Counted from the first letter of the stretch, positions 15,418 through 49,429 are shown. The stretch: 64,000 nt of DNA from Myxococcota bacterium (GCA_965228475.1 OZ245817.1:3872001-3936000); one strand, 5' to 3'. The notes: generated from the sequence alone by a model not told the origin. Program-made: numbers and translations.

Positions 15418-15470
15418 ACGAGCGCCGGGCGCAACCAGAAGGCCCGGGGGCGGAGTGGTAGATTCCCGGG

Positions 15471-17702
15471 ATGCAGCCGGGCCGGGCCAGCGTGGAGCAC
15501 GAAGTCGTCCTGGTGGGCGCCGGGCACGCCCACGTCCAGATCCTGCGCCGCTTCATGATGAAGCCGGTCCCGGGCGTCCGGGTGACGGTCGTCCTGGACC
15601 GCCCCGAGGCGGTCTACTCGGGCATGGTGCCGGGCTTCGTCGCGGGCCAGTACACGGCCCACGACCTCACGATCGACCCCGTGCCGCTGGCGCGCCGCGC
15701 GGGGGCGCGCGTCGTCCTCGCCCCGGCCACGCGGGTGGACGCCGGCGCGCGCCGGATCGAACTCGAAGGCCGCCCCTCCCTCGCCTACGACGTCGCGAGC
15801 CTCGACGTCGGCTCGAGCGTTCGCGGGCTCGAGCTGCCCGGCGTCCGCGAGCACGCGCTGGCCACGCGGCCGATCGGCGGCCTGGTCGCGGGGGTCGAAG
15901 CGGCGATCGCACGGGCCCGCGCGGCCCGGGGTGAAGCGCCGCTCCGGATCGCGGTGGTCGGGGCGGGCGCTGCGGGCGTCGAGCTCGCCTTCTGCCTGGG
16001 TGCGAGGCTCCGCCGGGAGCGCGTCGCCCACGCGACGTCCGTCTTCACCGCGGGCGACGAACTCCTGCCCGGCCAGCCCGCCCGGGTCCGCGACCGCCTC
16101 GCCCGTCTCCTCGCCGCGGAAGGCATCACGCTCCGGACGGGCTTCGCCGCGACCGCGGTCGAGAAGGATGCGCTGCACGGCTCGGTCGGAGGAAGCGCCG
16201 TCGTCGAGCCGGTGGACCTCGTCGTCTGGGCGGCCGGTGCGGCCCCGTCGGAGCTCCTGCGCGAATCCACCCTGCCCGCGACCGAGGCCGGCTTCCTCCG
16301 GGTGCGCGAAACGCTCCAGGTCGTCGACCAGGATGCCCTCTTCGCCGTCGGCGACTGCGCATGGCTCGACGCCCATCCCTGGATGCCGCGCGCAGGCGTC
16401 CACGCCGTGCGCGAGGGTCCGACCCTCGACCACAACCTGCGCGCGCTCCTCGCGGGGCGCCCGCTGCGCAACCACGAACCCCAGCGCGACTTCCTCACCC
16501 TGCTGAACCTCGGCGAGGGCCGCGCCTTCGGCATGAAGTGGGGCCTTGCCGTCGAGGGCCGCGCGGTCTTTCGCCTGAAGGACGCGATCGACCGGCGCTT
16601 CATGCGCCGCTTCCAGGTGCTCGACGAAGCGGGCGCACCGAGCGCGCACTTCCCCTCGGCCGAAGCCATGGGCATGGACGCCGAAGAGATGGCCTGCGGC
16701 GGCTGCGCGGCCAAGGTCGGCGCGCGGCCCCTCGAGGCAGCCCTGGCCCGGCTCCCGGCGCCGCCCGAGGACGCCTCGGTCCTGCTCGGCCTCGAAACCC
16801 CCGACGATGCGGCGCTCGTCGCCGGCCCGGGCGGCGGCGCCACGCTCACCACCATCGACGGCTTCCGCCCTTTCACCGACGACCCGTTCCTCGTCGGGCG
16901 CGTGGCCGCGATCAACGCCGCCTCGGACGTCCTGGCCAAGGGCGGAACGCCGCGCCACGCACTGGCGCTCGTGACCGTCCCGCCCGATGCCGAAGCCGAG
17001 ACCCTCGCCCAGGTCCTGGCCGGCGTGCGCGCCGCCCTCGACCCGCTCGGAGCGAGCCTCGTCGGCGGTCACACGACGGCGGGCGAGGAGCTCTTCGTCG
17101 CACTCTCGATCCTCGGCGCCGTCGAGGAGGACGCCACGCTGCTCCCGCTCTCGGGAGGGCGGCCCGGCGACGCCCTGATCCTGACGCGCGCGCTCGGCAC
17201 CGGCGTGATCCTCGCCGCGGACATGCAGGGCCGCGCCCGGGGGCCGTGGGTCGCCGAGACGCACCGGCAGATGGTGCGCCCGAACCCGCGCGCCCGCGGA
17301 GCCCACGCTGCGACGGACGTCTCGGGGTTCGGTCTCGCCGTCCACCTCGGGGAACTCGCCGAGGCGAGCGGCGTCGGCGCGCGCGTCCGGCTCGGCGCCC
17401 TTCCCCTGCTGCCCGGCGCCGAGGCGCTGTTCGCCGCGGGCCTGCGCAGCACGGCCCACCCGCAGAACGTCGCGGCGGCGAAGGTCCGCGCCGAGCCCCC
17501 CGCCGCCGACGACCCGCGCCTGGCCGCGCTCTTCGACCCCCAGACCTCGGGCGGCCTGCTGCTCGCGACCGGCCCCGAGCAGACCGAAGCGACGCTCGCG
17601 CGGCTCCACGCCGAGGGCCATCGCGACGCCTGCGTGATCGGCGAGCTCGTGCCCTTCGTGAGCTCGAGCGGCTCAGGCCCGCGCATCGACGTTCAACCTT
17701 GA
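15471..17702 (+). CDS. selD: Selenide,water dikinase fused to an N-terminal FAD/NAD(P) oxidoreductase domain
   Basis: GAGHAH, GAGAAGVE N-terminal domain; CGGCAAKV, DDAA, GGHT, TDVSGFGL, DPQTSGGLL. Confidence 0.92.
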   Translation: MQPGRASVEHEVVLVGAGHAHVQILRRFMMKPVPGVRVTVVLDRPEAVYSGMVPGFVAGQYTAHDLTIDPVPLARRAGARVVLAPATRVDAGARRIELEGRPSLAYDVASLDVGSSVRGLELPGVREHALATRPIGGLVAGVEAAIARARAARGEAPLRIAVVGAGAAGVELAFCLGARLRRERVAHATSVFTAGDELLPGQPARVRDRLARLLAAEGITLRTGFAATAVEKDALHGSVGGSAVVEPVDLVVWAAGAAPSELLRESTLPATEAGFLRVRETLQVVDQDALFAVGDCAWLDAHPWMPRAGVHAVREGPTLDHNLRALLAGRPLRNHEPQRDFLTLLNLGEGRAFGMKWGLAVEGRAVFRLKDAIDRRFMRRFQVLDEAGAPSAHFPSAEAMGMDAEEMACGGCAAKVGARPLEAALARLPAPPEDASVLLGLETPDDAALVAGPGGGATLTTIDGFRPFTDDPFLVGRVAAINAASDVLAKGGTPRHALALVTVPPDAEAETLAQVLAGVRAALDPLGASLVGGHTTAGEELFVALSILGAVEEDATLLPLSGGRPGDALILTRALGTGVILAADMQGRARGPWVAETHRQMVRPNPRARGAHAATDVSGFGLAVHLGELAEASGVGARVRLGALPLLPGAEALFAAGLRSTAHPQNVAAAKVRAEPPAADDPRLAALFDPQTSGGLLLATGPEQTEATLARLHAEGHRDACVIGELVPFVSSSGSGPRIDVQP

Positions 17703-18760: not shown

Positions 18761-18810
18761 CGCCGTCCCGCACACGCCGCCGGTGATAGAATGCGCTCCG
18801 AGGAGGTTTC

Positions 18811-34299: not shown

Positions 34300-34311
34300 C
34301 GGGTCGAAACT

Positions 34312-34445
34312 ACCTGGCGATGCGGGCCTTCGGCAAAGCTCCGAGCGCTGCCTCTCAGCGCTGGCCCCGCCGTGCCCGCTGCAAAATCCTACCACGCTGA
34401 TCTGAACCCGAGTACAGGGCGCCCGCCCTTTGCCTCGCCGCCCTG
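34312..34445 (-). repeat. Degenerate family-A attC remnant
   Basis: 'gggccttcggc..gcgctgcctctcagcgctg..aatcctaccacgc' aligns by eye with the 42282 and 44497 sites; right end approximate. Confidence 0.6.
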
Positions 34446-34453
34446 CCCGCGCG

Positions 34454-35207: not shown

Positions 35208-35244
35208 GCGGAGGATCCTACCACGGCGTTTCGGGCGACCGGCG

Positions 35245-35648: not shown

Positions 35649-36386
35649 CTAACTCGCGCCACGGTAGACCGAGATCTCCACCGCATCTGGCAGATCGCTG
35701 TACTCGATGCGGGCGGTGCGGTGCTCGGAATCGTAGCGCCCGCAGGTGCGGACGTACTCGAGGTACGGCTCGGCGCCGAACATCTCGCCGACGTTGTCGG
35801 CCACCACGATGCTCCCCTCGCGCAGGAGCCCGCGCTCCTCGAGGAGCCGGAGGTCCTTCTCGTAGAGATCCTTCCAGTGGTCGAGGAAGACGAGATCGAA
35901 GGTGCCCTCGAGCGTTCCGATGACCTTCGACGAGGACCCTTCGAGGATCTCGACCCGGCCGGCGTATCCCGCGTAGGCGACGTTCGCGCGAGAAGCACGG
36001 ACCGAATCCGCGTTCACCTCGATCGAAGTGAGCCGGCCCTCCGGCCCGAGCTCGCCGGCGATCATGATTGCGGAGTAGCCGCAGTACGCCCCGAGCTCGA
36101 GCACCCGCGCGTTCGCCGGAAGGCGCCCGATCAGCTCCGCCATGAGCGGCCCCTTCTCCGGCCCGACATTCATGAGGAACCGCCGCTCACGAGCGAACCG
36201 ATCCATCGCCCGCAGCACGCCCTCCGGGTCGCCCTCCTCCGCGTTCTCCTCGACGAACCGGCGAACCTGCTCGACCCGCGGCGGCGCGCCGGTCACGAGA
36301 TCCGCCACGAACTCATATGCGCGGCGGGCCGTCCACGGGAGGGCTTTCGGGGAAAGGAAACGGGCGAGGTTCAGAAGCTGTGCCAT
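35649..36386 (-). CDS. Catechol O-methyltransferase-like protein
   Basis: MNVGPEKG, LELGAYCGYS, FLDHWK, VADNV. Confidence 0.88.
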   Translation of the reverse strand: MAQLLNLARFLSPKALPWTARRAYEFVADLVTGAPPRVEQVRRFVEENAEEGDPEGVLRAMDRFARERRFLMNVGPEKGPLMAELIGRLPANARVLELGAYCGYSAIMIAGELGPEGRLTSIEVNADSVRASRANVAYAGYAGRVEILEGSSSKVIGTLEGTFDLVFLDHWKDLYEKDLRLLEERGLLREGSIVVADNVGEMFGAEPYLEYVRTCGRYDSEHRTARIEYSDLPDAVEISVYRGAS

Positions 36387-38011
36387 GGGTGCACCTCGCT
36401 GGCTGCAAGAGCGCGGTCGGGTCAGGAAGACACGGAAACCCTACCACGACACGCAGGATCCAAGTCGACGTCGCCCGCTGTTGCATTCCTCGCCGGCCAC
36501 CTTCGGAAGAGGGCGTCTTCCCGGGAGCTTCGTGTGATAGTTTGATCAACCGTGCGGCACCTCATCGCAAGCCTCGTGTGCCTCTTCCTCGTACCCGACC
36601 TCGGGCAGAACAGGCCCGTGTGGCCCTCAGCCGAAGCGGCCCCGGCATCGACTCCGAACGCTCGTGAGGCTCCCGAGGTATTGGAGCTCCGAGCCGGCGT
36701 AGACGCCGGCGACCCCTCTGCAATGTTGAAGCTCGCGCTGCATCTACTGAAGGGGAACCCATCGCAGCAGGCCGAGGGATTCTCTCTTCTCGAAGCCGCA
36801 GCGCAATCTGGATTGGCGCCGGCCCAGCTTCTGCTGGGAGAGCTGCACATCCTGGGGCGTGCGCCGAGCGCGGAGCCCGAGCAGGCGTTCCGCTGGATGC
36901 GAAGGGCCGCCGATCAGGGCCTCGTCGAGGCCGAGTTCCAGATGGGCCAGATGTACTACCAGGGCTTCGGAACCTCGCAGGACCGCGCCGCCTCGGTCGA
37001 GTGGTATCGGAAGGCCGCCGCGCGCGGCCATGCTGGAGCGACGAATGCTCTCGGCGTGCTCCTATCCACCGACGAGGTATTCATCAAGGATCGGACAGAG
37101 GCCGCACGCTTGTACAGAGTCGCGGCCGAGTCCGGGGATGCCGTCGGCCAGTTCAACCTGGCGAAGCGGCTCGCCGACGGCGACGGCGTGAAGAAGGACC
37201 CTGCGCGCGCCACCTACTGGTTTCACCAGGCGGCTCAGCGGGGCCATGTCGCCGCCCAGTACGACCTGGGCCTCCGCTACCTCGACGGGATTGGAACGAC
37301 CCAAGATGTCGAGGAGGGTCGGTCTTGGCTCGAGCGCGCCGGCGACGCGGGCTTCGGGCCGGCGTATCGCGCCATCGCATACCGACTTCTGGCGTCACCA
37401 GCGACCCGCGCGAGCGCGGCCGAGTGGTTCGAACGCGGGGCCGAAGCGGGCGACGCACACTCGCAGATCGCCGTCGTCGAAGCACGGATCCGGGGAGAGA
37501 TCGAGCCTGAAGACCCCGCCGACGATCTACGGAAGATCTTGGCCCTTGCCGATGCGGGCGACCTCTCCGCCATGATCACGATGTCCATGGCCCACTACAA
37601 AGGCTACGGCGTCACCCAGGACCCACTGTCAGCATTCTCTTGGGCGCAGCGCGCAGCACTCGGTGGCCTCGCCCGCGGAGAGTCGATGCTTGGGATGTAC
37701 TACGGGAAGGGAATTGGCGTCCAAGCCGATCCGAAGAAGGCAGTCGAGTGGTACCGCAAGGCCGCTGCCCAGGGGGAGCCCAACGCCCAGTACTCACTTG
37801 GGGTTCACCACCTTCTCGGGAAACACGTCCGCAAGAACCCCAAGAGAGGCATCGCGTTGCTGGAGGCGGCAGCGAAGCAAGGCAACGCCGAGGCGGCCGC
37901 GGTGCTGGAGAAGCTGAGGCGGCGCCAGCGCTCCGGCGCCGCACGCTAAGGCCGGTTCTCCGCTAGCAGAGTCGGAACTTCAAGAGAAACGGGCGAGGTT
38001 CAGGAGCTGTG
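36357..38011. repeat. 26-bp direct repeat pair (36357-36382 and 37986-38011) bracketing the Sel1 gene
   Basis: GAAACGGGCGAGGTTCAG(A/G)AGCTGTG, 25/26 identical. Confidence 0.85.
36552..37949 (+). CDS. Exported Sel1-like repeat protein
   Basis: Repeated W..KAA.QG...AQ..LG..Y..G.G units; N-terminal signal. Confidence 0.9.
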   Translation: MRHLIASLVCLFLVPDLGQNRPVWPSAEAAPASTPNAREAPEVLELRAGVDAGDPSAMLKLALHLLKGNPSQQAEGFSLLEAAAQSGLAPAQLLLGELHILGRAPSAEPEQAFRWMRRAADQGLVEAEFQMGQMYYQGFGTSQDRAASVEWYRKAAARGHAGATNALGVLLSTDEVFIKDRTEAARLYRVAAESGDAVGQFNLAKRLADGDGVKKDPARATYWFHQAAQRGHVAAQYDLGLRYLDGIGTTQDVEEGRSWLERAGDAGFGPAYRAIAYRLLASPATRASAAEWFERGAEAGDAHSQIAVVEARIRGEIEPEDPADDLRKILALADAGDLSAMITMSMAHYKGYGVTQDPLSAFSWAQRAALGGLARGESMLGMYYGKGIGVQADPKKAVEWYRKAAAQGEPNAQYSLGVHHLLGKHVRKNPKRGIALLEAAAKQGNAEAAAVLEKLRRRQRSGAAR

Positions 38012-38042
38012 TCGAGGCTTCACGCTCTGCCTTCGGAGCAGG

Positions 38043-38504
38043 TTAGACACCGTAGTAGCCCAGGAGGAGACCGTTGAGCCAGCGGCCGAACAGGAAGCCC
38101 ACGGCCACCAAGCCGAGATTGAGCAACGCGTAGCTCGCGCGCGCCCACCCGGGCGGCACGGCGCGGGCCGATACCAGGGTCGCGAGGGCGAAGAAGAACC
38201 ATGCCCCGGTGCAGACGAGAAGCGGCTTCCCGAGAAGAAACATCAGAGGCAGGTCGTGGAAGACCAGACCAGAGGAGAGAAAGGTGATCACGACGGCCAG
38301 CGGCCGATTCTCGCGGCCGCCGAGCGTCCGATAGAGACGATGAAGCACGAATCCGGCGAGAGGACTCCACGTGCGCCAGAAGTTGTGGAACCCCGGCTCG
38401 AACCAACAGTCGACGAACATGCGCCGGATCACCCGAAGAGGAGGCATCGAGGCGGGGTAGCCCCGAGCCTCGAGGTATTCCTGGTAGGACGGCGCGGAGG
38501 TCAT
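38043..38504 (-). CDS. MBOAT-like small membrane protein (cassette-like)
   Basis: 'FHNFWRTWS', 'TFLSSGLVFHD'; stop lies in an R''-like GTCTAAC. Confidence 0.55.
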   Translation of the reverse strand: MTSAPSYQEYLEARGYPASMPPLRVIRRMFVDCWFEPGFHNFWRTWSPLAGFVLHRLYRTLGGRENRPLAVVITFLSSGLVFHDLPLMFLLGKPLLVCTGAWFFFALATLVSARAVPPGWARASYALLNLGLVAVGFLFGRWLNGLLLGYYGV

Positions 38505-38530
38505 CGAGAACTCGCTCGGCTCGGCGGCAG

Positions 38531-38893
38531 CTAGTGAGCGGCCGAGACTTCGTCCAGATAGAAGACGTTCCCGTCCGGATCGGCGAAGAGCGCCAGGTAC
38601 CCGCCCCACGGCTGACGGGTAGGCGGCATCGGAAAGGCAACGCCGGCCGACGAGAGACGTTCGAACTCGGCATCGAGGTCAGCGACCGCGAACCCGACGC
38701 CGGTGTGGCGACCCACCCAATCCGCCTGCTCCGCCCCCGCCACCGCCAGCCCCAGGTGCACGGGCCCCGCAGAAAGAGAGGCGTAACCGTGCCCCGTATC
38801 CGAGTGGGCAACCCGCAGGCCGAGCTTCGACTCGTAGAACCGGAGCGCCCGGTCGAGATCCGAGACGAAGACGTTGACGTAGGCGATCTTCAT
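38531..38893 (-). CDS. VOC/glyoxalase family protein
   Basis: VSDLDRALRFYESKLG, PWGG....FADPDGN; SD AGGAG. Confidence 0.88.
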   Translation of the reverse strand: MKIAYVNVFVSDLDRALRFYESKLGLRVAHSDTGHGYASLSAGPVHLGLAVAGAEQADWVGRHTGVGFAVADLDAEFERLSSAGVAFPMPPTRQPWGGYLALFADPDGNVFYLDEVSAAH

Positions 38894-38917
38894 GTCCGGC
38901 TCCTGTGATCTGCACCA

Positions 38918-39007
38918 CCAGCGCCGCGCCACTTTGTCCAACGCCAGAACTCTACCACCCGGCGTTCGGGCACGACGCCTGGCCCCTGCTGATAGCCATT
39001 GCTAGGC
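38918..39007 (-). repeat. Partial family-A attC (R'' arm and loop kept, R' arm lost)
   Basis: acgccagaactctaccac...cctgctgatagccattgctaggc resembles the 42350-42415 segment. Confidence 0.7.
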
Positions 39008-39307
39008 AGCCGGACTCTCCGGCTCCGAACCCGCGAAACGACGAACCTGGCGAAGAACCCAGCGACCATCGGAAATGAGGTAGCGACCCAAGAAGAAGAG
39101 CAAGGCGCACTTCACCGCGTTGAATGCGAGGGACGCAAGCATCTGGGAGAGTGGAGTGACCCCAGGGTGACTCTCCGGAGATGCCACAGCGGCATAGGCG
39201 ATGCTGGGCAACCACGCGACGGCGTTGACCGCAGAAAACGCAGCCTGGAGCCAGGCGTAGAGGCCCAGGACTCGTATCGCGACCTCGAGATAGTCATTGC
39301 GAGTCAA
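39002..39307 (-). CDS. Small membrane protein (cassette)
   Basis: Two hydrophobic helices; stop TAG inside R''; TTG start inferred. Confidence 0.55.
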   Translation of the reverse strand: MTRNDYLEVAIRVLGLYAWLQAAFSAVNAVAWLPSIAYAAVASPESHPGVTPLSQMLASLAFNAVKCALLFFLGRYLISDGRWVLRQVRRFAGSEPESPAA

Positions 39308-39410
39308 TGGATCTTCCCGCCGGGCCGTCTTCGGCTTGCTGCAATCCACCGCTGCGCCACCGAGACGCGCCAACAGAATGGTATCACGGCGCAACGGAAC
39401 CCATGCGATC

Positions 39411-39935
39411 TCAGCGACGGAGCCTGAAGTGCCCCTCCCGGAGGCCCGACTCTGCGGCACGCAGCACCTCCTCTTCGCTTCGACCAAGTGTGCTGATGAC
39501 ATGCGACTCGTACTCGCCCAGCTCCGCGAAGGCGGCGACCGTCGGCCGCACTCGAGCACTCGCACCGACCCCCTGGCGCTCTCGAACCCGACGTAGCGCC
39601 TCTGCCTCAGGGACGCGGAGCACCAGGTATGACGCGTCGATATCAGGGGGTAGCTCCGCCATGACTACGGGGAGAAACCACGGGCCGAAGATGCCGTCCA
39701 GCACGACCAGATACCCACCCTCGAGAAATGCACTTGCCGCCCTCGCGGTCGCGCGGACGATCGTAGTGTTCTGGGCGTGAGATTCGGGCTTCGTTGGCTC
39801 GATGAAATGAGCTGGGAAGCCATAGAACGTGTCGCCAGTGAGATGCAGTCCTTGCGGGTGGGCCTTTGAAATCGATGCGGAGAGTGTCGTCTTGCCGGCG
39901 CCGGGGCAGCCCGACACGATGATGAGGGAAGCCAT
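39411..39935 (-). CDS. P-loop kinase/AAA_33-like protein
   Basis: Walker A GCPGAGKT; VVLDG. Confidence 0.8.
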   Translation of the reverse strand: MASLIIVSGCPGAGKTTLSASISKAHPQGLHLTGDTFYGFPAHFIEPTKPESHAQNTTIVRATARAASAFLEGGYLVVLDGIFGPWFLPVVMAELPPDIDASYLVLRVPEAEALRRVRERQGVGASARVRPTVAAFAELGEYESHVISTLGRSEEEVLRAAESGLREGHFRLRR

Positions 39936-40024
39936 TCGTACCTCGGGTCTGGAGTACGGGTCAGGTCGAGCGAGATGAAGGACCTGGCTTCCTAGTTCAT
40001 TGTCGGCTCTCGGTTCGCTTCGTC

Positions 40025-40099
40025 ACCCAAGCGGGAATCCAGAAGTCTACCAAGCAGGAGTGCAGACGCGGTGGTCGTCAGCTGCAACCCTTGTCAGGC
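40025..40099 (-). repeat. Partial family-B attC (R'' arm and loop kept)
   Basis: ccagaagtctacca...gtcagctgcaacccttgtcaggcggc resembles 45804-45867. Confidence 0.7.
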
Positions 40100-40612
40100 G
40101 GCAGGCCCCTGAGAGCGCGCCTCGACCAGGATCGCGACGAACGCGTATCCGGCCATCAGAAGGAGGAATACCAAATTGAGGAGGTAGGAAAAGAACAGCC
40201 ACGGCGAGAAGAAGCCTGCGACGGTGAGGAACTGAGCGAGAACCAGGGAGATTCCGATGACGTGTACAGCCATGAGCGGCCCCGACCGGCCGATCTGGCG
40301 CTCGCCTCGCAGGTTGACGCGCCAGCGCGCCCGAGAGTGGGCGACGATGATGGCGAGATGATAGGAGCCCAGGAGCAGGCCCGAGACGCGCCATGCGTGC
40401 GTCGGCTCCAAGTGACTCGCACGCGCAAGGTCAGGGACGAAACCAAAGACGACAACCCCCAGGCTGCATCCCAGAAGTGCGATGAGCGCCGGAGCGTCGT
40501 CCGGCTGCCAGGCTCCGTTCTCGCGCCCTCCGAGCACCATGACGACACCGGTGAATCCGGCGAACGCGATGGCGACCTCGGCCAAAGAATGGAGGATGTC
40601 CTGATGCTCCAG
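40094..40612 (-). CDS. Multi-TM hypothetical protein (cassette), probable CTG start
   Basis: 'SLAEVAIAFAGFTGVV'; AGGAG SD 8 nt before an in-frame CTG. Confidence 0.7.
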   Translation of the reverse strand: MEHQDILHSLAEVAIAFAGFTGVVMVLGGRENGAWQPDDAPALIALLGCSLGVVVFGFVPDLARASHLEPTHAWRVSGLLLGSYHLAIIVAHSRARWRVNLRGERQIGRSGPLMAVHVIGISLVLAQFLTVAGFFSPWLFFSYLLNLVFLLLMAGYAFVAILVEARSQGPAA

Positions 40613-40627
40613 AATCCCGCTCCTGCC

Positions 40628-40761
40628 GCCCAACGGATCAGGCCTTCAGCAGCGCCGAGGGTGCTGACACTCAGCGCTGCACCACCGTGGCCGATGCCAG
40701 AATCCTACCACGCCGCATTCGAGCCCAAGCCCTTGGCGTCCGCTGCAAGGCATCGTTAGGC
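40628..40761 (-). repeat. attC site, family A (134 bp)
   Basis: Minus strand GCCTAAC..TGCAGCGGAC...GCTGCTGAAGGC..GTTGGGC; imperfect palindrome between co-oriented ORFs. Confidence 0.88.
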
Positions 40762-40780
40762 GGCGGGCGTTGACCACGAA

Positions 40781-41545
40781 TCAACCTTCGATGTACTCCT
40801 CGATGGTTTCCTTGTTCTTTCGAAGTGCTGCCTGGAGTTCTTCGGGCTCAGTTCCCTCGATTCGTCGGTCAAGTTCCTCCGCCACCCCTTCGACGAGCGG
40901 GTTGAACTCAACGATGTTCCAGATCCCGTGTGAAATGTTCGCGCCAAGGACACCTGCGGAGGTGCATGCGACAAGAAAGCCCCAGGAATATGAATACGTT
41001 CCGTACTCGAGCTTCTCGCAGAGTTCCTTCAGATCAAACGCTACCTTCCGCTGGTAGGCCACGTGGCACGCGTACAAGGTCTGAAGACCATTCGACGAAG
41101 CAGCCTCCAGGAACGAGCTGAGAGGCTCGGTCTTCGTGCCCTCGTCGCTCACAGAGCCGACTGGCCGAGACCCTGCCTCTGTCGACAAGCCCTTGATTAG
41201 GGTCTGAGTCTCATCGACCCGCTCCCCAACACGTTCGATCATGCTCGGAAGGGTTTCGACCTTGCGAGTCAGCTCGTCGGAGGCTTCGGACACTCGCTCT
41301 GCCGTTCCGGACAGAAGCCGGGAAGCGCCATCGAGCGTGGCAACATTCTGGGAGAAAGAAGTGTTGGAATACATCGAGTAGGCGATCGCCAACAGGGCAA
41401 GAACCAGCGACGTGACAGTCAGTGCGAACGTGATGTAGTCGACGAGTCGCGGCACGGCGCTCCACTCGATAGTGACCAGAGCAATGATGGCTAGTACCAA
41501 GATCGATACGATGTAGAACGCGTGGATCTTGTACTTCGTTTCCAT
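40781..41545 (-). CDS. Hypothetical protein with 2 N-terminal TMs and coiled-coil-like region (cassette)
   Basis: ORF fills the space between attC sites. Confidence 0.75.
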   Translation of the reverse strand: METKYKIHAFYIVSILVLAIIALVTIEWSAVPRLVDYITFALTVTSLVLALLAIAYSMYSNTSFSQNVATLDGASRLLSGTAERVSEASDELTRKVETLPSMIERVGERVDETQTLIKGLSTEAGSRPVGSVSDEGTKTEPLSSFLEAASSNGLQTLYACHVAYQRKVAFDLKELCEKLEYGTYSYSWGFLVACTSAGVLGANISHGIWNIVEFNPLVEGVAEELDRRIEGTEPEELQAALRKNKETIEEYIEG

Positions 41546-41559
41546 CGATGTTCCCTGCC

Positions 41560-41693
41560 GCCTCACGGATCAGGCCGCCAGCGGCGCCGAGGGGGCTGAC
41601 TCTCAGCGCTGAACCACCGCGACCGATGCCGAAATCCTACCACGCCGCATCCGATCAGGAGCCCTTGGCGTCCGCTGTAAGGCCTTGCTAGGC
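41560..41693 (-). repeat. attC site, family A (134 bp)
   Basis: GCCTAGC...GTGAGGC ends; internal homology to the other family-A sites. Confidence 0.85.
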
Positions 41694-42275
41694 GGCTCCG
41701 CCTGCGAGAGGCTCTCCGCATTGAGAGCACCGTTCATCTTCCAGGGTGGCGCTGGCCGCGCACGCTGGGCAAATCTGCCAGCCGGTCGGAAACGGGAGGC
41801 CGCAGTCACTGCACTCAGTTGCTCCCGTCTCGGCGCTCGTGCCACAAGCGGGGCAGTGATCGAGTTCGGTTCCAGTCTGGGCGGACTCGCCTGGAGGACT
41901 TGGCATTCGCGATTCTTCGTGCGCCTCGACCAAACGTAGAGCAGCCTCGACAGACGACTCCTCGACATAGAGCGCCAGGTTGTAACCGTGACCGGCGCTC
42001 CCTTTTACCGCACCACGAGCGTCAATCGAGGACCCCGGCGGATCGGTGTCGATCTTGCTTGAGATGCCCCTCTCCTGGAGGAATATTGCTTGCTGTTCGA
42101 GCTGCCAGGGACCTCCGTACGAGACGATCTCCAGGTTACTCAGGTACGCGAAACCGGCTGGGCTCGGCGGCGGACTCCAGGGTTCGAGCGTGACATGACA
42201 ATCCGAGCAGGTCTCGACATCAAGCCTGTACTCGATGTGGCACGAGGGGCAGAGTTTCGCGAGTACGAAGTCCAA
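41688..42275 (-). CDS. Zinc-ribbon / DUF2007-like protein (cassette)
   Basis: CPSC..CSDC at N-terminus, four CxxC at C-terminus, central 'LQERGI...LYV....EAA'. Confidence 0.72.
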   Translation of the reverse strand: MDFVLAKLCPSCHIEYRLDVETCSDCHVTLEPWSPPPSPAGFAYLSNLEIVSYGGPWQLEQQAIFLQERGISSKIDTDPPGSSIDARGAVKGSAGHGYNLALYVEESSVEAALRLVEAHEESRMPSPPGESAQTGTELDHCPACGTSAETGATECSDCGLPFPTGWQICPACAASATLEDERCSQCGEPLAGGAA

Positions 42276-42281
42276 GAAGCC

Positions 42282-42415
42282 GCCTAACGGATCAGGCCTT
42301 CAGCAGCGCCGAGGGCGCTGACTCTCAACGCCGCACTACCGAGACCGACGCCAGAATCCTACCACGCAGCATTTTGGGGATGAGCCTTGGCGCCTGCTGA
42401 TAGGCCTTGCTAGGC
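42282..42415 (-). repeat. attC site, family A (134 bp)
   Basis: GCCTAGC...GTTAGGC; 80 bp identical to the 44497 site. Confidence 0.88.
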
Positions 42416-42419
42416 GGCA

Positions 42420-42888
42420 CTAGTCAATCTTGTTGATCGGGAGGTCGACTCTCGGATCGATGGTCAGGTTGATGATGCCTTCCGCCACCTTCCGAAACCC
42501 TTCAGATGTCTTGCGTAGCTGCGAGGTTTCAAGGACTTCCCTGTCCACCCGCAAACCGCGCTTGGCCTTTGCGCTGCTCTTGGTTCTTAGCGCGCCCTCA
42601 ATATCTGCCGGTGCCCAGATCGAATGGAGCAGCTTGTTTCGCTCCATCTCAGCCTTGGTGATCGCAGTTCGAAGAGACTCGATTTCCTGGATGTACGATT
42701 CGTCGTTGGTGGATTCTTTGAGCACCGAGAGAAGAAATTTCGTTGGAATCTCTGCTGAAACGATTTCGCCGACCGTCGTATCTGCTGACAGTGCTGCTTG
42801 CAGTGGAACAGTGAGACTCAACTCAAGGACCCAACGCCTTGAGGAAATCGTCGTCGAGGTAGTGTTCAAAGAATGTCCTTCGCGCCAA
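42420..42888 (-). pseudogene. HEPN-like gene, apparently frameshifted near 42830
   Basis: RNKLLH (Rx4H) in the C-terminal frame; N-terminal 'EHYLDDDFLKALG' lies in another frame that stops soon after. Confidence 0.5.
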
Positions 42889-42918
42889 CGCAGCCGCCTG
42901 GCTAGCCCACAGGCAGCA

Positions 42919-43773
42919 TCAGATACTGACCTTGTCCGACTTGGATCTATTGCAGTCGAAACATGTGAGTCGGATGTTCTGCTCCTCTGAACTGCCGCCT
43001 TTGGAGATCGGAATCTCGTGATCGAATTCGACTTCGTTGTCTCGCAGGTGCTTGCCACACCGTTGACATGTGTAGTTGTCACGCCGTACGACCCGAATCT
43101 TTGTCTTGAAGGAGATGTATCGACCTGTTCGGCGTAGTTCGGAGGTTTCGGTCATCTGCTCAGCGTTGAATACGGCAGGGCATAGGTGACCAAAGACGTT
43201 GCACGACGCGTCGATGAGCCAACCTGGAATCTCTTCCGGGTAGTCAGCAGCATCGAACTCGTCGATCTCCCGCTGAAAGTGCTCTCTCTGTTCGTCAGTG
43301 ATGGGGCGAAGGTTGCCAACGATCCCTGTCTTGAGGGCCCGCTTCATGTCTTCGTTGACAGCAACCGCAGCCTCGCGCGTCAGATCATCACCGATGTCCC
43401 GGCCAAGACGCTGCATCATTGTGATCTCGCCAGTCGGGTCAGGCTCGTAGTCCCCTGGATTGAAGTCGGCGACGCAATCCTCGAAGTCCTGCCTAGTCTG
43501 ATCATCGAGAGGTTCGCCATGTCCGGCCATGCCGCTGGCGAGACAACCCTTGATGTACTCCAAGTGATCAACTGCATCCTCGCGTGTCTGCGGAAGCAGG
43601 GGAGATTGCTCGACCAGGGGACCGTAGGGACAGTACTTCAGCTCCCAACACGGCTTGCACACACGGTTGGCTCGCTGCTCCCACCACGATGCGAAATCAG
43701 CATCGGACAGCGTGTCCGGGAGCGCGAGTGCTCTTCGAACGGCAGGATGGAGTCGCTGTTCTGCAGACGCCAC
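42919..43773 (-). CDS. HNH endonuclease with Cys-rich N-terminal domain (cassette)
   Basis: RDNYTCQRCG..FDHEIPISKGG....N....CFDCN. Confidence 0.9.
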   Translation of the reverse strand: MASAEQRLHPAVRRALALPDTLSDADFASWWEQRANRVCKPCWELKYCPYGPLVEQSPLLPQTREDAVDHLEYIKGCLASGMAGHGEPLDDQTRQDFEDCVADFNPGDYEPDPTGEITMMQRLGRDIGDDLTREAAVAVNEDMKRALKTGIVGNLRPITDEQREHFQREIDEFDAADYPEEIPGWLIDASCNVFGHLCPAVFNAEQMTETSELRRTGRYISFKTKIRVVRRDNYTCQRCGKHLRDNEVEFDHEIPISKGGSSEEQNIRLTCFDCNRSKSDKVSI

Positions 43774-43784
43774 GATTCGATGCC

Positions 43785-43915
43785 GCCTAGCGGACTAGGG
43801 GTTTCGCTGCGGCCAACGGCCGCCGAGGTCGCAGCGCCACCCGAGTAACGACGCTAGGATTCTACCAAGTCAGTTGGAGGCTGCGTTGGTCGGCAGCTCT
43901 AACCCCGTGTCATCC
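43785..43915 (-). repeat. attC site, family B (131 bp), degenerate R''
   Basis: Shares gctgcggccaacggccgccgaggtcgcagc with the 45736 site. Confidence 0.8.
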
Positions 43916-43926
43916 GGCATCGCTCC

Positions 43927-44493
43927 CTACCTACCGCGGCGCTTCTTTCTCGCTGTCTGCTTGCGCCCCCGTTTGTGTTGGCGCTCGTAAAACAGAGTGC
44001 CTGCTTCAAAATCTCGAATGTTGCCAGGCTGGATGTCTACTCGCTTCTTGCGTTCATTGAACTGGAGCTGTGAGCCCCCTGCTCGGATTAACAGAGTCTC
44101 GATCTCTCGCTCATGAGTCTTCTCTGCGACAATGTAGAAGGAGAAGTACTGGAGTTCCGAGGAGTGAGCCTTCTTGCGGGAAGCCAGACGCCTGAACACG
44201 TTGCCGCGGCCAACGTATCGAGCGGAACCCATCGAGTCGTGAGCTACGTAGACGCCGTTTGGTGTGATCCCTTCGCTGGCAACGTCCTTTCTGACATCAT
44301 CGAGCGCATCGAATGGCAGCTTCTCTGCGACAAGAGTGAAGAGTGGCTCGATCTTTCGTGGTCGCCCACGCCCACGGGTGAGCTGACCAGCCTTAACGGA
44401 CCAGTGCGAGTTACTCCAGACGGTGGAGTAGACGGTCTTGGTGGCCTGAGGCTTCGATCGCCGCTTCTTTCGTACTGCCATGCAACCGCTCAT
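43927..44493 (-). CDS. GIY-YIG nuclease family protein (cassette)
   Basis: GVY...RYVG.G....RL, EREIETLLI, N. Confidence 0.82.
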   Translation of the reverse strand: MSGCMAVRKKRRSKPQATKTVYSTVWSNSHWSVKAGQLTRGRGRPRKIEPLFTLVAEKLPFDALDDVRKDVASEGITPNGVYVAHDSMGSARYVGRGNVFRRLASRKKAHSSELQYFSFYIVAEKTHEREIETLLIRAGGSQLQFNERKKRVDIQPGNIRDFEAGTLFYERQHKRGRKQTARKKRRGR

Positions 44494-44496
44494 GCC

Positions 44497-44630
44497 GCCT
44501 ATCGGATCAGGCCTTCAGCAGCGCCGAGGGCGCTGACTCTCAACGCCGCACTACCGAGACCGACGCCAGAATCCTACCACGCTGCCCTTGGACAGAAGCC
44601 CTCGGCGGCTGCTGATAGGCCTTGTTGGGC
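44497..44630 (-). repeat. attC site, family A (134 bp)
   Basis: GCCCAAC...GATAGGC. Confidence 0.88.
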
Positions 44631-44642
44631 AGCTGCACGGGC

Positions 44643-44912
44643 CTACTCGTCAGAATCCAGCTCCCCGGTCGCAAGAAAGGTGAGCTCGCGATCTGAGAAC
44701 TCGGACTCTTGAAGCAGCCAACGGGCTCGGTGAGCCGACTCCGCACTAACCGAGGGCCGCACCTTTGCGGGAACAGCTGCGACAGATTGGGTGACATAAA
44801 CGGATGAGGAGACTCCGCCCGAGCGGAGCATGCCCTGGACGACCTCGGCAGTACCAATCGAGTCGAACTCTAGAACGAACTCACCATCCTGGATGGAGTC
44901 GCCGTCGCTCAT
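44643..44912 (-). CDS. DUF2007-like small protein (cassette)
   Basis: 'AEVVQGMLRSGGV...V....AHRARWLL'. Confidence 0.65.
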   Translation of the reverse strand: MSDGDSIQDGEFVLEFDSIGTAEVVQGMLRSGGVSSSVYVTQSVAAVPAKVRPSVSAESAHRARWLLQESEFSDRELTFLATGELDSDE

Positions 44913-44915
44913 GCC

Positions 44916-45022
44916 GCCTAGCGGATTCGGCGCTCAGCGGCCGCCTCGCCGCAGGCGGAGGCTTGGAGCGCCCTAGGTTGATGCCAGGATTGTACCAGGG
45001 TCGGATGGAAGCCTGGGTAGGC
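44916..45022 (-). repeat. Shorter, degenerate attC site (107 bp)
   Basis: GCCTACC...GCCGCTGAGCGCCGAATCCGCTAGGC; lies between co-oriented ORFs. Confidence 0.7.
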
Positions 45023-45027
45023 GGCGC

Positions 45028-45728
45028 CTAGCCTGTCTTCCTGAACTTATACGTATCCCAGGGGGACATGCCGACTCTCGAGCGGACGAACTTTCGAACT
45101 TGGTTGGACGATATAACAGCCAGCCGGAAGACCAGCTCACTGGCGCGCCGATAACGTGTAAGGGTGACGCGGCTTTCCGCAACAACTCGATGCGCGATCT
45201 CTCCGCGAAGAGTGATTAGGTCTTCAAGTCGCGACTGTGCGCGCTCTGCCGACATGTTCTTCCAGCGCCAATTCGACGAGAGCCTCTGGAACCCGACCAT
45301 GTGAAGGAAAAGCTCATCAACCTGTTTGGGCGGGGAGTGTTTAGCCTCCGCACATAGCGATCGAGGACCTGGTCTCGGTACGAGACGAGAACATCACGCC
45401 AGCCATCTTCTGCCAGTGCCCAGACGCGCCGTGGGTCGCTTTCTTTCTGCAGGCCACCGGCACAGAGTGCCAGGATTTTCGGTGCGAACGCTCCTGGGGA
45501 CTCTGCGTGTTCCAGCGTGAAGTCAACAGCATTGACTGCAAGATCTTCGACGAATGCCTCCCAAGACCCGACCAAGAATACGATCGCACTCCGAATCAGA
45601 ATATTGGGCTCAACGAGCGGCGCGTGGGGATCGTCACGTAAGTGTTCGTAGGTCTCGACGAGCGTATCGAGATCTCTCATGCTCGCTCGCAGCGTGCCGA
45701 TATGGGATGGCTCTTCTTGTTCGGTCAA
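45028..45728 (-). CDS. HEPN-domain protein (RiboL-PSP-HEPN-like) split by a -1 frameshift
   Basis: RSAIVFLVGSWEAFVED...NTP in frame 0; LRGEIAH (Rx4H) in the -1 frame; junction at 45324-45330. Confidence 0.72.
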
Positions 45729-45735
45729 CGGCGCC

Positions 45736-45864
45736 GCCTAACGGATCAGGGGTTCAGCTGCGGCCAACGGCCGCCGAGGTCGCAGCAGCACCCGAGTGCA
45801 AAGCCAGAACCTACCACGCAACTGGAAGGCCGCGTTGGCCGTCAGCCGCAACCCCTTGTTAGGC
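45736..45864 (-). repeat. attC site, family B (129 bp), canonical ends
   Basis: GCCTAAC-AAGGGGTTGCGGCTGAC...GCAGCTGAACCCC..GTTAGGC. Confidence 0.9.
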
Positions 45865-45873
45865 GGCCCACTC

Positions 45874-46344
45874 TCAGGGGAGCCTAACCCGAACAAAGGC
45901 CGGCTTCTGCGACATTGCATGAAACACGCCGCAGTAATAGCGCCCCGTCTTGCCGTAGTTCGCGACCGCCTCGTCTTGGTTGATGCCACCGGTCCATCTG
46001 TCGCCGGGTTCGAGCCTATGGGGGAGCGGCGGGCCGAACGGAACGTTGCCGACGACGAATCTGGCGCTTGCTCGGTCGAACAACGCATGGAAGATGGACT
46101 TGTAGTGAACGCCTGCCAGGTTCGTAATCGTGGTGGCTTGGCCCCCGTGGTTCGTAACTGAGACAAAGATGAACGTGGCATCGGGGGCGCTTGGAAGGGG
46201 CGGCATCGCCTGCATGTCGGGACTGGCGTAAACCCTGATCTCGGCTCCACGTCGTCGCCACTTGTAGACGTCCCAGCCGAGCACTGCAGTGGCAACGATC
46301 GCGCCCCACCACGCAGCGACGTCTGTAAGGGAGAGAGAATCCAT
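45874..46344 (-). CDS. Hypothetical protein with N-terminal TM (first cassette)
   Basis: ORF between the attI-like site and the first attC. Confidence 0.75.
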   Translation of the reverse strand: MDSLSLTDVAAWWGAIVATAVLGWDVYKWRRRGAEIRVYASPDMQAMPPLPSAPDATFIFVSVTNHGGQATTITNLAGVHYKSIFHALFDRASARFVVGNVPFGPPLPHRLEPGDRWTGGINQDEAVANYGKTGRYYCGVFHAMSQKPAFVRVRLP

Positions 46345-46359
46345 CTGCTCGCTTGGGCC

Positions 46360-46440
46360 GCCTAGCTAGTCTATCGGTCGGCCCCCGAGTATCTCTCGGG
46401 GTCTTGATCGTTCAGTCCGGAGTCTTGGCCGTTCAGTCTA
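46360..46440 (-). other. attI-like site
   Basis: Lone R-like GCTAGGC(GGC) at 46360-46366 with no partner arm, preceded by two 21-bp direct repeats (46397-46417, 46418-46438; 18/21 identical). Confidence 0.55.
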
Positions 46441-46578
46441 GGCTCAACCGTGTCGGAAAGGGGAAGCGCTTTTCGTTCGCGAGGCTGGGCGAGCGAAGCT
46501 ACCGGGGCAGCCGGTTGGGCTGCGCGGGGATTCTGCGGGCCAGTGTGTTCGATGATGGGGTCGGCCCTGGCGCTCACG

Positions 46579-47220
46579 CTACGCGTCCGGCAGTCGGAGG
46601 CCCGTACCGCCAAGGCCGCAGTACCCACCGGGGTTCTTGGAGAGGTACTGCTGGTGGTAGTCCTCGGCGTAGTAGAACGCGGGGGCTTCGAGGATCTCGG
46701 TGGTGATGCGGGCGCCGCGGGTCTGGCCGTCGATGACTTTCTGGAAGGCGTCGCGGGTGGCTTCGGCCTGGGTGCGTTGCGCTTCTCCGTGGACGTAGAT
46801 GCCCGAACGGTATTGGGTGCCGGTGTCGTTGCCCTGGCGCATACCTTGGGTCGGGTCGTGGGCTTCCCAGAAGATGCGGAGCATTTCGCGGTAGCTCGTG
46901 GCGCTCGGGTCGAAGACGACGCGGACCACTTCGTTGTGGCCGGTCAGGCCGGAGCAGACTTCTTCGTAGGTGGGGTTCGGGGTGTGGCCGGCGGCGTAGC
47001 CGACCGCCGTGGTGTAGACGCCTTCGGCCTGCCAGAACTTGCGCTCGGCGCCCCAGAAGCAGCCCAGGCCGAACTCGGCGACTTCCATCCCTTCCGGGAA
47101 GGGCGGCGCGAGGGCGGTGCCGAGCACGTGGTGCTTCTCGGGGACGGGCATGGCGGCGCTTCTGCCGGGGAGCGCATCCGCGGCGCTCACCATCTGGGTC
47201 TTGTCTCGGAACAGGCGCAT
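46579..47220 (-). CDS. msrA: Peptide-methionine (S)-S-oxide reductase
   Basis: [27 protein letters not shown]. Confidence 0.96.
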
Positions 47221-49374: not shown

Positions 49375-49429
49375 CTCGGTCCTCCGCTGAAGCCTTCATT
49401 CTATCAGCCCCGGCGGTAGAATCCGGCGC

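Follow-up and report, generated by a model that had tools for sequence, protein, structure and literature searches.

The stretch of DNA analyzed here, 64,000 nt from a Myxococcota bacterium (hereafter the window; C1:3872001–3936000 of a genome made up of one 5.006-Mb contig with 70.5% G+C), carries an integron gene cassette array on its minus strand, spanning ~46440 to 34300 in window positions. The array contains seven complete attC recombination sites, six of which fall into two sequence families and one of which is short and divergent, and below them five decayed or truncated attC-like remnants. The attC sites are spaced 419–2215 nt apart, with single open reading frames (ORFs) between them, all on the minus strand; the orientation of each attC was taken from ORF direction. 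In the center of these sites lies a nine-nucleotide box, TGGTAnnnT, which is probably a real extended −10 promoter carried by attC itself, judging from the comparisons of sequence set out below.

Results

Each of the seven sites runs from an R″ core GCCTAAC to an R′ core GTTAGGC, or close variants of these, with RYYYAAC/GTTRRRY cores present. The original prediction, made from the window sequence alone, held that all seven carry TGG-TAnnnT on the minus strand, and the box was indeed found on this (coding) strand in 7/7 sites at every coordinate given. Its predicted position, ~65–75 nt before R′, also holds, with 65–76 nt between hexamer end and R′ by our new site boundaries; the divergent site, predicted at 107 bp, instead spans ~117 nt.

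From the head of the array downward, attC 1 (second family, 129 nt, 45736–45864, minus strand) was recognized by its cores, by a match to the arm models described below, and by a DNA fold that pairs its arms (z = −4.0). It contains the box TGGTAGGTT at 45808–45816, 65 nt before R′. The short divergent attC 2 (~117 nt, 44906–45022, minus), of which only the 3′ arm was matched in the arm census, contains TGGTACAAT at 44989–44997, 76 nt before R′. The main-family attC 3 (44497–44630, minus; cores, alignment, and arm-model match) holds TGGTAGGAT at 44571–44579, and the second-family attC 4 (43785–43915, minus), which has a degenerate R″ and was recognized by its cores, repeat D6, alignment, and an arm-model match, holds TGGTAGAAT at 43859–43867. 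The remaining three sites are minus-strand members of the main family, recognized by cores, alignment, and arm-model match (for attC 5 also by DNA fold), and all carry TGGTAGGAT: attC 5 (42282–42415) at 42356–42364, attC 6 (41560–41693) at 41634–41642, and attC 7 (40628–40761) at 40702–40710, the last 67 nt before R′. In an alignment of the seven sites, the sole contiguous invariant block of the attC center was TGGTA, together with the last T of the hexamer, in agreement with the earlier statement that only TG, TA, and the last T are invariant.

The motif TGNTANNNT occurs in 20 copies in the window compared to 8.93 ± 3.04 expected, and 0/100 shuffles reached 20. Twelve of these copies lie on the minus strand between 34386 and 45816, seven of them in complete attC sites and five in decayed ones. 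Because these five further boxes sit in attC-like remnants, the array extends below the range first reported (40628–45864), which does hold the seven complete sites.

In G+C-rich DNA, free gaps push up the identity figures for the remnants, and visible alignments were used instead. The truncated attC at 40010–40099 (minus) keeps its 5′ arm, which was matched unpaired in the arm census, and the box TGGTAGACT (40044–40052), with the 3′ arm gone; it lies upstream of an AAA-kinase-like ORF (39411–39935). A second truncated attC (38919–39007, minus; repeats D3 and D5) keeps the 5′ arm and the box TGGTAGAGT (38949–38957); in place of its 3′ part, a glyoxalase-family gene has its AGGAG ribosome-binding site and start codon (ATG at 38893). 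Farther down are a lone box TGGTAGGGT (36438–36446, minus), followed after ~50 nt by an O-methyltransferase gene (ATG at 36386), and a box TGGTAGGAT (35215–35223, minus) with ~20 nt of attC-center-like sequence upstream and an ATG (35207) 7 nt downstream, in a leaderless layout. In the lowest remnant, a decayed attC (34300–34450, minus), the center and 3′ arm are recognizable and the R′ core is destroyed, with the box TGGTAGGAT (34386–34394) intact at 9/9 positions. Remnants lacking R′ or the whole 3′ arm still hold the box before genes (34386, 35215, 38949, and 40044). A Sel1-repeat protein gene on the opposite strand (465 aa; 36552–37949, plus) breaks into this decayed lower part of the array.

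The predicted secondary structure of attC places the box outside the paired arms. For 21 sites from 9 genomes, RNAalifold returned one long stem in which compensatory changes affect 14 of the 26 pairs, and left the center, ~78 alignment columns including the box, unpaired. The seven window sites also gave one long stem with the box unpaired, and in single-site DNA folds the arms paired, with local pairing around the box that was no more than weak and inconsistent. Conservation through hairpin pairing, which the original prediction had raised as a counter-explanation, was rejected, as each of the two consensus folds leaves the box in the unpaired center. In the 21-site alignment, the only loop columns around the box conserved at ≥90% were TGGTA and the GGC of a following CTGGC, and three single G columns were conserved farther 3′. 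Two other readings of these motifs were set aside: the box as a stop codon (TAG ending ORFs that run into attC) was rejected because TAC, TAT, and TAA variants exist, and the GG-N10-GC spacing that a sigma-54 reading of the CTGGC box calls for was absent from the sites inspected by eye.

To survey the genome, we used nhmmer models of the two arms only (columns 7–40 and 97–155 of A1), which are blind to the motif. This census returned 42 paired sites, with the box at offset 18–26 of the center in 41/42 and its reverse complement in 0/42; the exception (4376724–859) belongs to a different center class with TGGGTGCCGTCTGGCGGCATACT. Among 34 generically detected sites of the genome, the nine box columns were 0.97 identical, compared to 0.90 for the whole site, 0.78 for the 20 columns upstream of the box, and 0.90 for the 20 columns downstream. 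Both the 21-site alignment and these genome columns thus bear out the expectation that, in larger alignments, the motif is better conserved than the loop around it.

The genome's main integron (C1:4361000–4385318; locus L001 covers 4382865–4386818) has its own integrase gene, intI (C1:4384365–4385318), which matches TIGR02249 at 422.6 bits (cutoff 265). It contains ~40 attC sites that are ~90% identical and nearly all carry TGGTAGGAT. Its intI and cassettes are co-directional, with attI past the intI 3′ end. Among 43 cassettes examined, 33 have their longest forward ORF beginning ≤32 nt past the end of R′, and in several the ATG directly follows GTTAGGCGGC, with AGGCGG at the position of a ribosome-binding site. 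Because the ORF starts so close to R′, such cassettes have little or no room for a promoter of their own. In the window's cassettes, the start codon mostly lies 0–9 nt past the R′ box.

An extended −10 promoter of the sigma-70 type combines TG at −15/−14 with TAnnnT and can dispense with a −35 element, and a leaderless gene has its transcription start at its start codon. We derived the organism's own −10 signal with both arrays excluded, calling genes as ORFs of ≥60 codons with a G+C content >0.78–0.80 at third codon positions (GC3) and <0.60–0.62 at second positions (GC2). Of the 362 copies of TGnTAnnnT outside the arrays, 120 lay 4–12 nt before a good ORF start, with a sharp peak at 6–8 nt, compared to 21/362 in a reverse-complement control. 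A good start lay within 200 nt of 313/362 copies, vs. 192/362 in the control. When TG was not required, 645 TAnnnT hexamers were found 5–9 nt before a good start. Position −14 was G in 65% of these cases, position −15 was T in 23%, and the third hexamer position was G in 42%; their profile contained no −35 signal. The organism thus seems to rely on promoters that consist of a −10 alone, frequently in extended form, and to make many leaderless mRNAs; the ~645 ORFs, called with a crude filter, suggest that leaderless mRNAs are very widespread in the genome.

A position weight matrix (PWM) covering positions −18 to −7, with the 645 start-proximal TAnnnT sites as training set, placed the seven attC boxes at the 81st–100th percentile of that set (attC 1, 81st; attC 2, 90th; attC 3, 97th; attC 4, 100th) and the boxes of the five remnants at the 58th–98th. 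The box therefore matches the −10 signal that the organism shows outside its arrays, as expected from the proposed sigma-70 extended −10 pattern. It shares with extended −10 and leaderless promoters the TG at −15/−14, the TAnnnT, and the lack of a −35; it differs from them in its placement inside a recombination site, and its activity is a prediction. The motif had also been said to precede ordinary genes in the window, and all three named cases hold: the box at 15456–15464 is followed by an ATG at 15471 after a 6-nt spacer, the box at 18784–18792 by an ATG 18 nt past it (18811), and the minus-strand box at 49398–49406 lies 23 nt before the ATG (49374) of an AOR gene. The first of these genes, the “selD” ORF (15471–17702, plus, 743 aa), has a leaderless layout in which the box ends 6 nt before the ATG. 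By eye, the N-terminal part of its translation resembles a pyridine-nucleotide-disulfide oxidoreductase fused to a SelD-like part.

To follow the box beyond this genome, we turned to its relatives, where the integron integrase (IntI) is present in 36/61 genomes of the order, this one included, and in 79/301 of the phylum. Arm models from this genome gave only 3 weak matches in 80 loci around distant IntI relatives, and because they matched almost nothing at distant loci, we wrote a motif-blind attC finder that seeks complementary NNNNAAC/GTTNNNN cores 45–155 nt apart with an arm-pairing score of ≥11. Of the ~40 sites of the main array, the finder recovered 32, as sites lacking AAC/GTT cores escape it; a 23-kb control region gave 0.

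Across same-order loci beside intI with at least two sites, the exact box was present in 18/43 sites on the array strand and in 0 on the other strand. We then pooled 79 sites from the relatives and this genome (10 genomes) and collapsed them to 33 types <85% alike. The exact box occurs in 15/33 types on the top strand and 0/33 on the bottom strand, where composition predicts ~1 by our own arithmetic, and TAnnnT occurs in 22/33 on the top strand vs. 5/33 on the bottom. The strand bias implied by the original prediction is thus strict, with 0 reverse-complement copies both in the genome census and among the 33 types. The claim that every attC carries the box stands for this genome (41 of the 42 arm-detected sites) and is too broad for the order (15 of the 33 types). 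Several box-less types retain TAnnnT without TG. Across types, TGGTA and the last T stay while the hexamer interior changes (GGA, GAA, CAA, GGT, GAG, GCC, TCC, GTC, CAT, CCG, ACG, GTG, or GCA).

The box is found in three attC architectures that differ in their flanks. In the 131–139-nt class, it lies 63–69 nt before R′ and is usually followed by CTGGCRTCG. The 114–116-nt class has other flanks, with the box set between GAGTCG and CACGCGCGG, 29–30 nt before R′. In a 147–152-nt class from another family of the phylum, 3/5 sites contain the exact box, and the other two, inspected by eye, have CGTTATGGT or CGTTATGCT, with G at −14 plus TAnnnT. In the 154–159-nt class (L028, L030, and L012), duplicated GGTTGAC boxes precede TGGTATACG or TGGTACACG, which lies near the 3′ arm and retains TGGTA but not the last T of a −10. 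A large array (L031) contains TAGTCT, TAGGTT, TAGTGT, or TAATCT without TG, and some attC types in the order show nothing recognizable.

Farther away, among distant IntI relatives from many phyla with mostly short attC, the box was present in 3/53 attC-like sites. Next to one distant relative, on a Coriobacteriaceae bacterium EMTCatB1 scaffold (L108:11956–18024), TAGACT is central in 3/3 attC-like sites of 87–105 nt, in one of them as TGCTAGACT, and attC-borne −10 boxes may therefore exist in another phylum. A 9-mer at locus L135 was not counted as the same feature, as it belongs to the 5′ arm and is base-paired to the 3′ arm. At 12 of 20 intI loci elsewhere in the class or phylum, where many contigs end near intI, no attC-like site was found.

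The remaining features of the window's array fit an integron cassette cluster. No integrase gene lies beside it; upstream of its head are an MsrA-like ORF (46579–47220), presumably MsrA on the strength of its sequence, and the AOR gene. Because there is no adjoining integrase and the head is an attI-like site next to msrA, the array is by position a cluster of attC sites without its own integrase (CALIN-like). The attI-like site (46360–46440, minus) was found through a 61-nt local alignment to the intI/first-cassette region of the main integron. Its core is GCTAGGC (46366 to 46360, minus; also written CGATAGACTAG or CTAGGC), and two 21-nt direct repeats of the GACTGAAC type precede it at 46397–46438. 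At both attI sites, in the window and in the main integron, the crossover is immediately preceded by a hexamer resembling a −10 element (TAGACT or TAAACT, with G at −14), which may be the array's own first promoter.

The cassette cargo is typical, including HNH endonuclease, zinc-ribbon, AAA-kinase-like, and glyoxalase genes and many ORFs without a family. Between the complete sites or next to them lie, all on the minus strand, an HNH ORF (42919–43773), a zinc-ribbon ORF (41688–42275), an ORF with a weak HEPN-like match below the Pfam cutoff (45216–45728), and ORFs with no family named (45874–46344, 44643–44912, 43927–44493, 42420–42881, 40781–41566, and 40094–40633). A GC3 filter (>0.80) calls no gene in 36500–46400 despite clear ORFs, and relatives' arrays have a G+C content of 0.61–0.68, compared to ~0.70–0.74 in flanking DNA. 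Both observations fit cassettes whose composition is foreign. The attC spacers are asymmetric (~1 nt vs. 5 nt), and canonical extrahelical bases could not be assigned. A search for intrinsic terminators in 38500–46600 found 7 terminator-like sites vs. 5.5 expected, none of them within attC.

Discussion

We propose that attC in this lineage may be a two-purpose module, in which the arms (R″–L″ and L′–R′) form the recombination hairpin and the unpaired center would act as a promoter. This promoter would be a TGnTAnnnT extended −10 element on the coding strand, without a −35. A housekeeping sigma-70-type RNA polymerase would start ~6–8 nt past the hexamer, inside attC and after the 5′ arm, and the mRNA leader would hold the 3′ half of attC only, in which the full attC hairpin could not form. 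Because transcription would begin after the 5′ arm, the partner arm would be missing and the leader would escape the attC hairpin. In transcripts from the integron promoter (Pc), that hairpin may hinder the expression of downstream cassettes. Published work covered in a review (PMC8876359) links it to transcription that ends prematurely and to a block in translating the cassettes that follow.

The predicted leader would continue through R′, whose sequence GTTAGGCGGC is similar to a ribosome-binding site, and enter the next cassette, where the start codon usually lies within ~30 nt. The box would thus serve the next cassette or, in an excised circle, the ORF of its own cassette. Since it lies upstream of the G/TT crossover, it would move with the upstream cassette. 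RNA polymerase binding, the start position, and the effect on expression are what we infer from these features, and on the same footing the whole array would be expressed regardless of cassette position.

Several observations weigh against the box as an attC-borne promoter. The attC hexamers agree with TATAAT at only 3–5 of 6 positions. A −35/−10 two-hexamer scan of 38500–46600 found no pair in any attC, although such a scan is uninformative for −10-only promoters. The gene starts behind the organism's −10 signal come from a crude GC3-based ORF filter rather than from annotation. Most attC sites of the genome form one near-identical family, so that counts within the genome are not independent and its conservation numbers are weak when taken alone. 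Across the order, the exact box is missing from 18/33 attC types, and some types hold TGGTA without the last T (TGGTATACG, TGGTACACG, or TGGTAGGGC). The constraint also reaches beyond a −10 element, because a CTGGC box is conserved next to the hexamer (CTGGC(R)TCG, 0–1 nt past it in the long class) and the G at −13 is fixed, with TGG near-fixed in attC boxes compared to 105/362 general boxes.

One rival explanation is that the conserved center (TGGTA…T plus CTGGCRTCG) is a recombination-related element whose −10 likeness is incidental, be it a contact for the integrase, a contact for a host DNA-bending or single-strand-binding factor, or a product of the process that creates attC. The near-fixed TGG, the second conserved island CTGGC adjoining the hexamer, and the types with TGGTA and no final T would all follow from such an element, and the 131–139-nt class is common to many genomes with related integrases. 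Yet the box recurs in two other architectures that lack CTGGC and have other distances to R′, and it is kept in remnants no longer able to recombine. Its variable and invariant positions are, moreover, those of the genome's −10 signal, and it sits in a part of attC that tolerates sequence change in studied systems. On balance, we consider a recombination element improbable.

It is still more doubtful that the box is functionless, having come down from a shared attC template, with concerted evolution or recent cassette genesis keeping it uniform. The ~40 main-array attC sites are ~90% identical, and conservation within the genome accordingly says little about this. Over 10 genomes, however, the arms and the rest of the center diverge, with compensatory changes, while TGGTA…T stays, and the hexamer interior varies between these fixed positions. 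The bias of 15/33 types on the top strand against 0/33 on the bottom, with ~1 expected from composition, and the persistence of the box in decayed sites also speak against a passive relic. We give equally little credence to the idea that the box binds RNA polymerase in a role other than cassette expression (e.g., transcription opening the DNA to aid attC folding, or a box silent in vivo with an attI-side promoter driving the array), which the −10-like hexamers with G at −14 at both attI sites would suit, but which leaves aside the start codons right past R′, the AGGCGG resembling a ribosome-binding site, and the apparent reuse of truncated sites as ordinary gene promoters, including the leaderless layout at 35215.

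An attC-borne promoter thus remains our preferred reading for this genome. Whether a dual-function attC extends to the whole order and at least one further family of the phylum seems to us an even call. Such an attC would join recombining arms to a −35-independent promoter loop and would entail hairpin-escaping transcripts, position-independent arrays, and truncated centers recycled as gene promoters. The TAGACT found in 3/3 sites at L108 hints at another phylum.

In openly readable main texts, to which the following comparisons are confined (subscription-only papers aside), every promoter or transcription start described at an attC is a single case. This agrees with the original statement that a promoter is not known as a general attC design. 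The closest case is Vibrio sp. DAT722, where a sigma-70-type junction promoter overlaps the attC of cassettes 20/21 and drives the next cassette, as proposed here (Michael and Labbate 2010, PMC2945992), and where the same work supported wide transcription of large arrays from intra-array promoters. That report concerns one promoter at one junction, by nested PCR, whereas here the box is fixed in an attC family across genomes.

In Vibrio superintegrons, gene-less cassettes that bear promoters (Blanco et al. 2024, PMC11014356) and, in Treponema, ORF-less cassettes (Tansirichaiya et al. 2019, PMC6557892) likewise raise the expression of downstream cassettes from within the array. In these studies, transcription of cassette F2 starts within its attC, and attC-internal starts are discussed as possibly spurious and AT-driven. 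There, the promoter is what special gene-less cassettes carry as cargo; here, it would be conserved in the attC of ordinary gene cassettes in a 70% G+C genome. Treponema denticola also has reverse (“unusual”) integrons with the same layout as the main integron of this genome, in which intI and cassettes are co-directional and attI lies past the intI 3′ end (PMC6557892), and an attC-borne promoter, unlike here, is not among the features reported in that text.

Cassettes with their own promoters, such as cmlA, qacE/qacI, qnrVC1, ere(A), and toxin-antitoxin cassettes (PMC8876359, PMC11014356), are exceptions to the promoterless rule and show position-independent expression, as proposed here. Their promoters lie in the 5′ untranslated region (UTR) of the cassette and serve its own gene, whereas our box lies at the 3′ end, inside attC, and would serve the next cassette; a cassette-borne 5′-UTR promoter is therefore not the arrangement found here. 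Group IIC-attC introns carry outward-facing promoters (PMC3001079; PMC8876359) and similarly show that a promoter at attC can drive downstream cassettes, but that promoter comes from an inserted mobile intron and not from the attC sequence itself. The review's list of promoter sources (5′ UTRs, toxin-antitoxin and ORF-less cassettes, group IIC-attC introns, and fused cassettes; PMC8876359) does not, in its openly readable text, include a promoter conserved within attC. At the level of sequence, the present case is well supported, and a conserved, lineage-wide promoter within a recombination site would extend the known set of intra-array promoters.

In the standard integron model, cassettes are promoterless, expression falls with distance from the Pc promoter, and distal cassettes form a silent reserve that is reactivated by reshuffling. 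The box offers a concrete, easily mutated 9-nt target in this setting. If it acts as we propose, a transferred cassette would deliver a gene together with a promoter for its neighbor, and the annotation of such arrays would change. Array-wide transcription has been seen in Vibrio and attributed there to scattered promoters; here, it may be a designed property of attC. All cassettes of these chromosomal integrons would then be expressed, which would change the cost-benefit logic of their large arrays.

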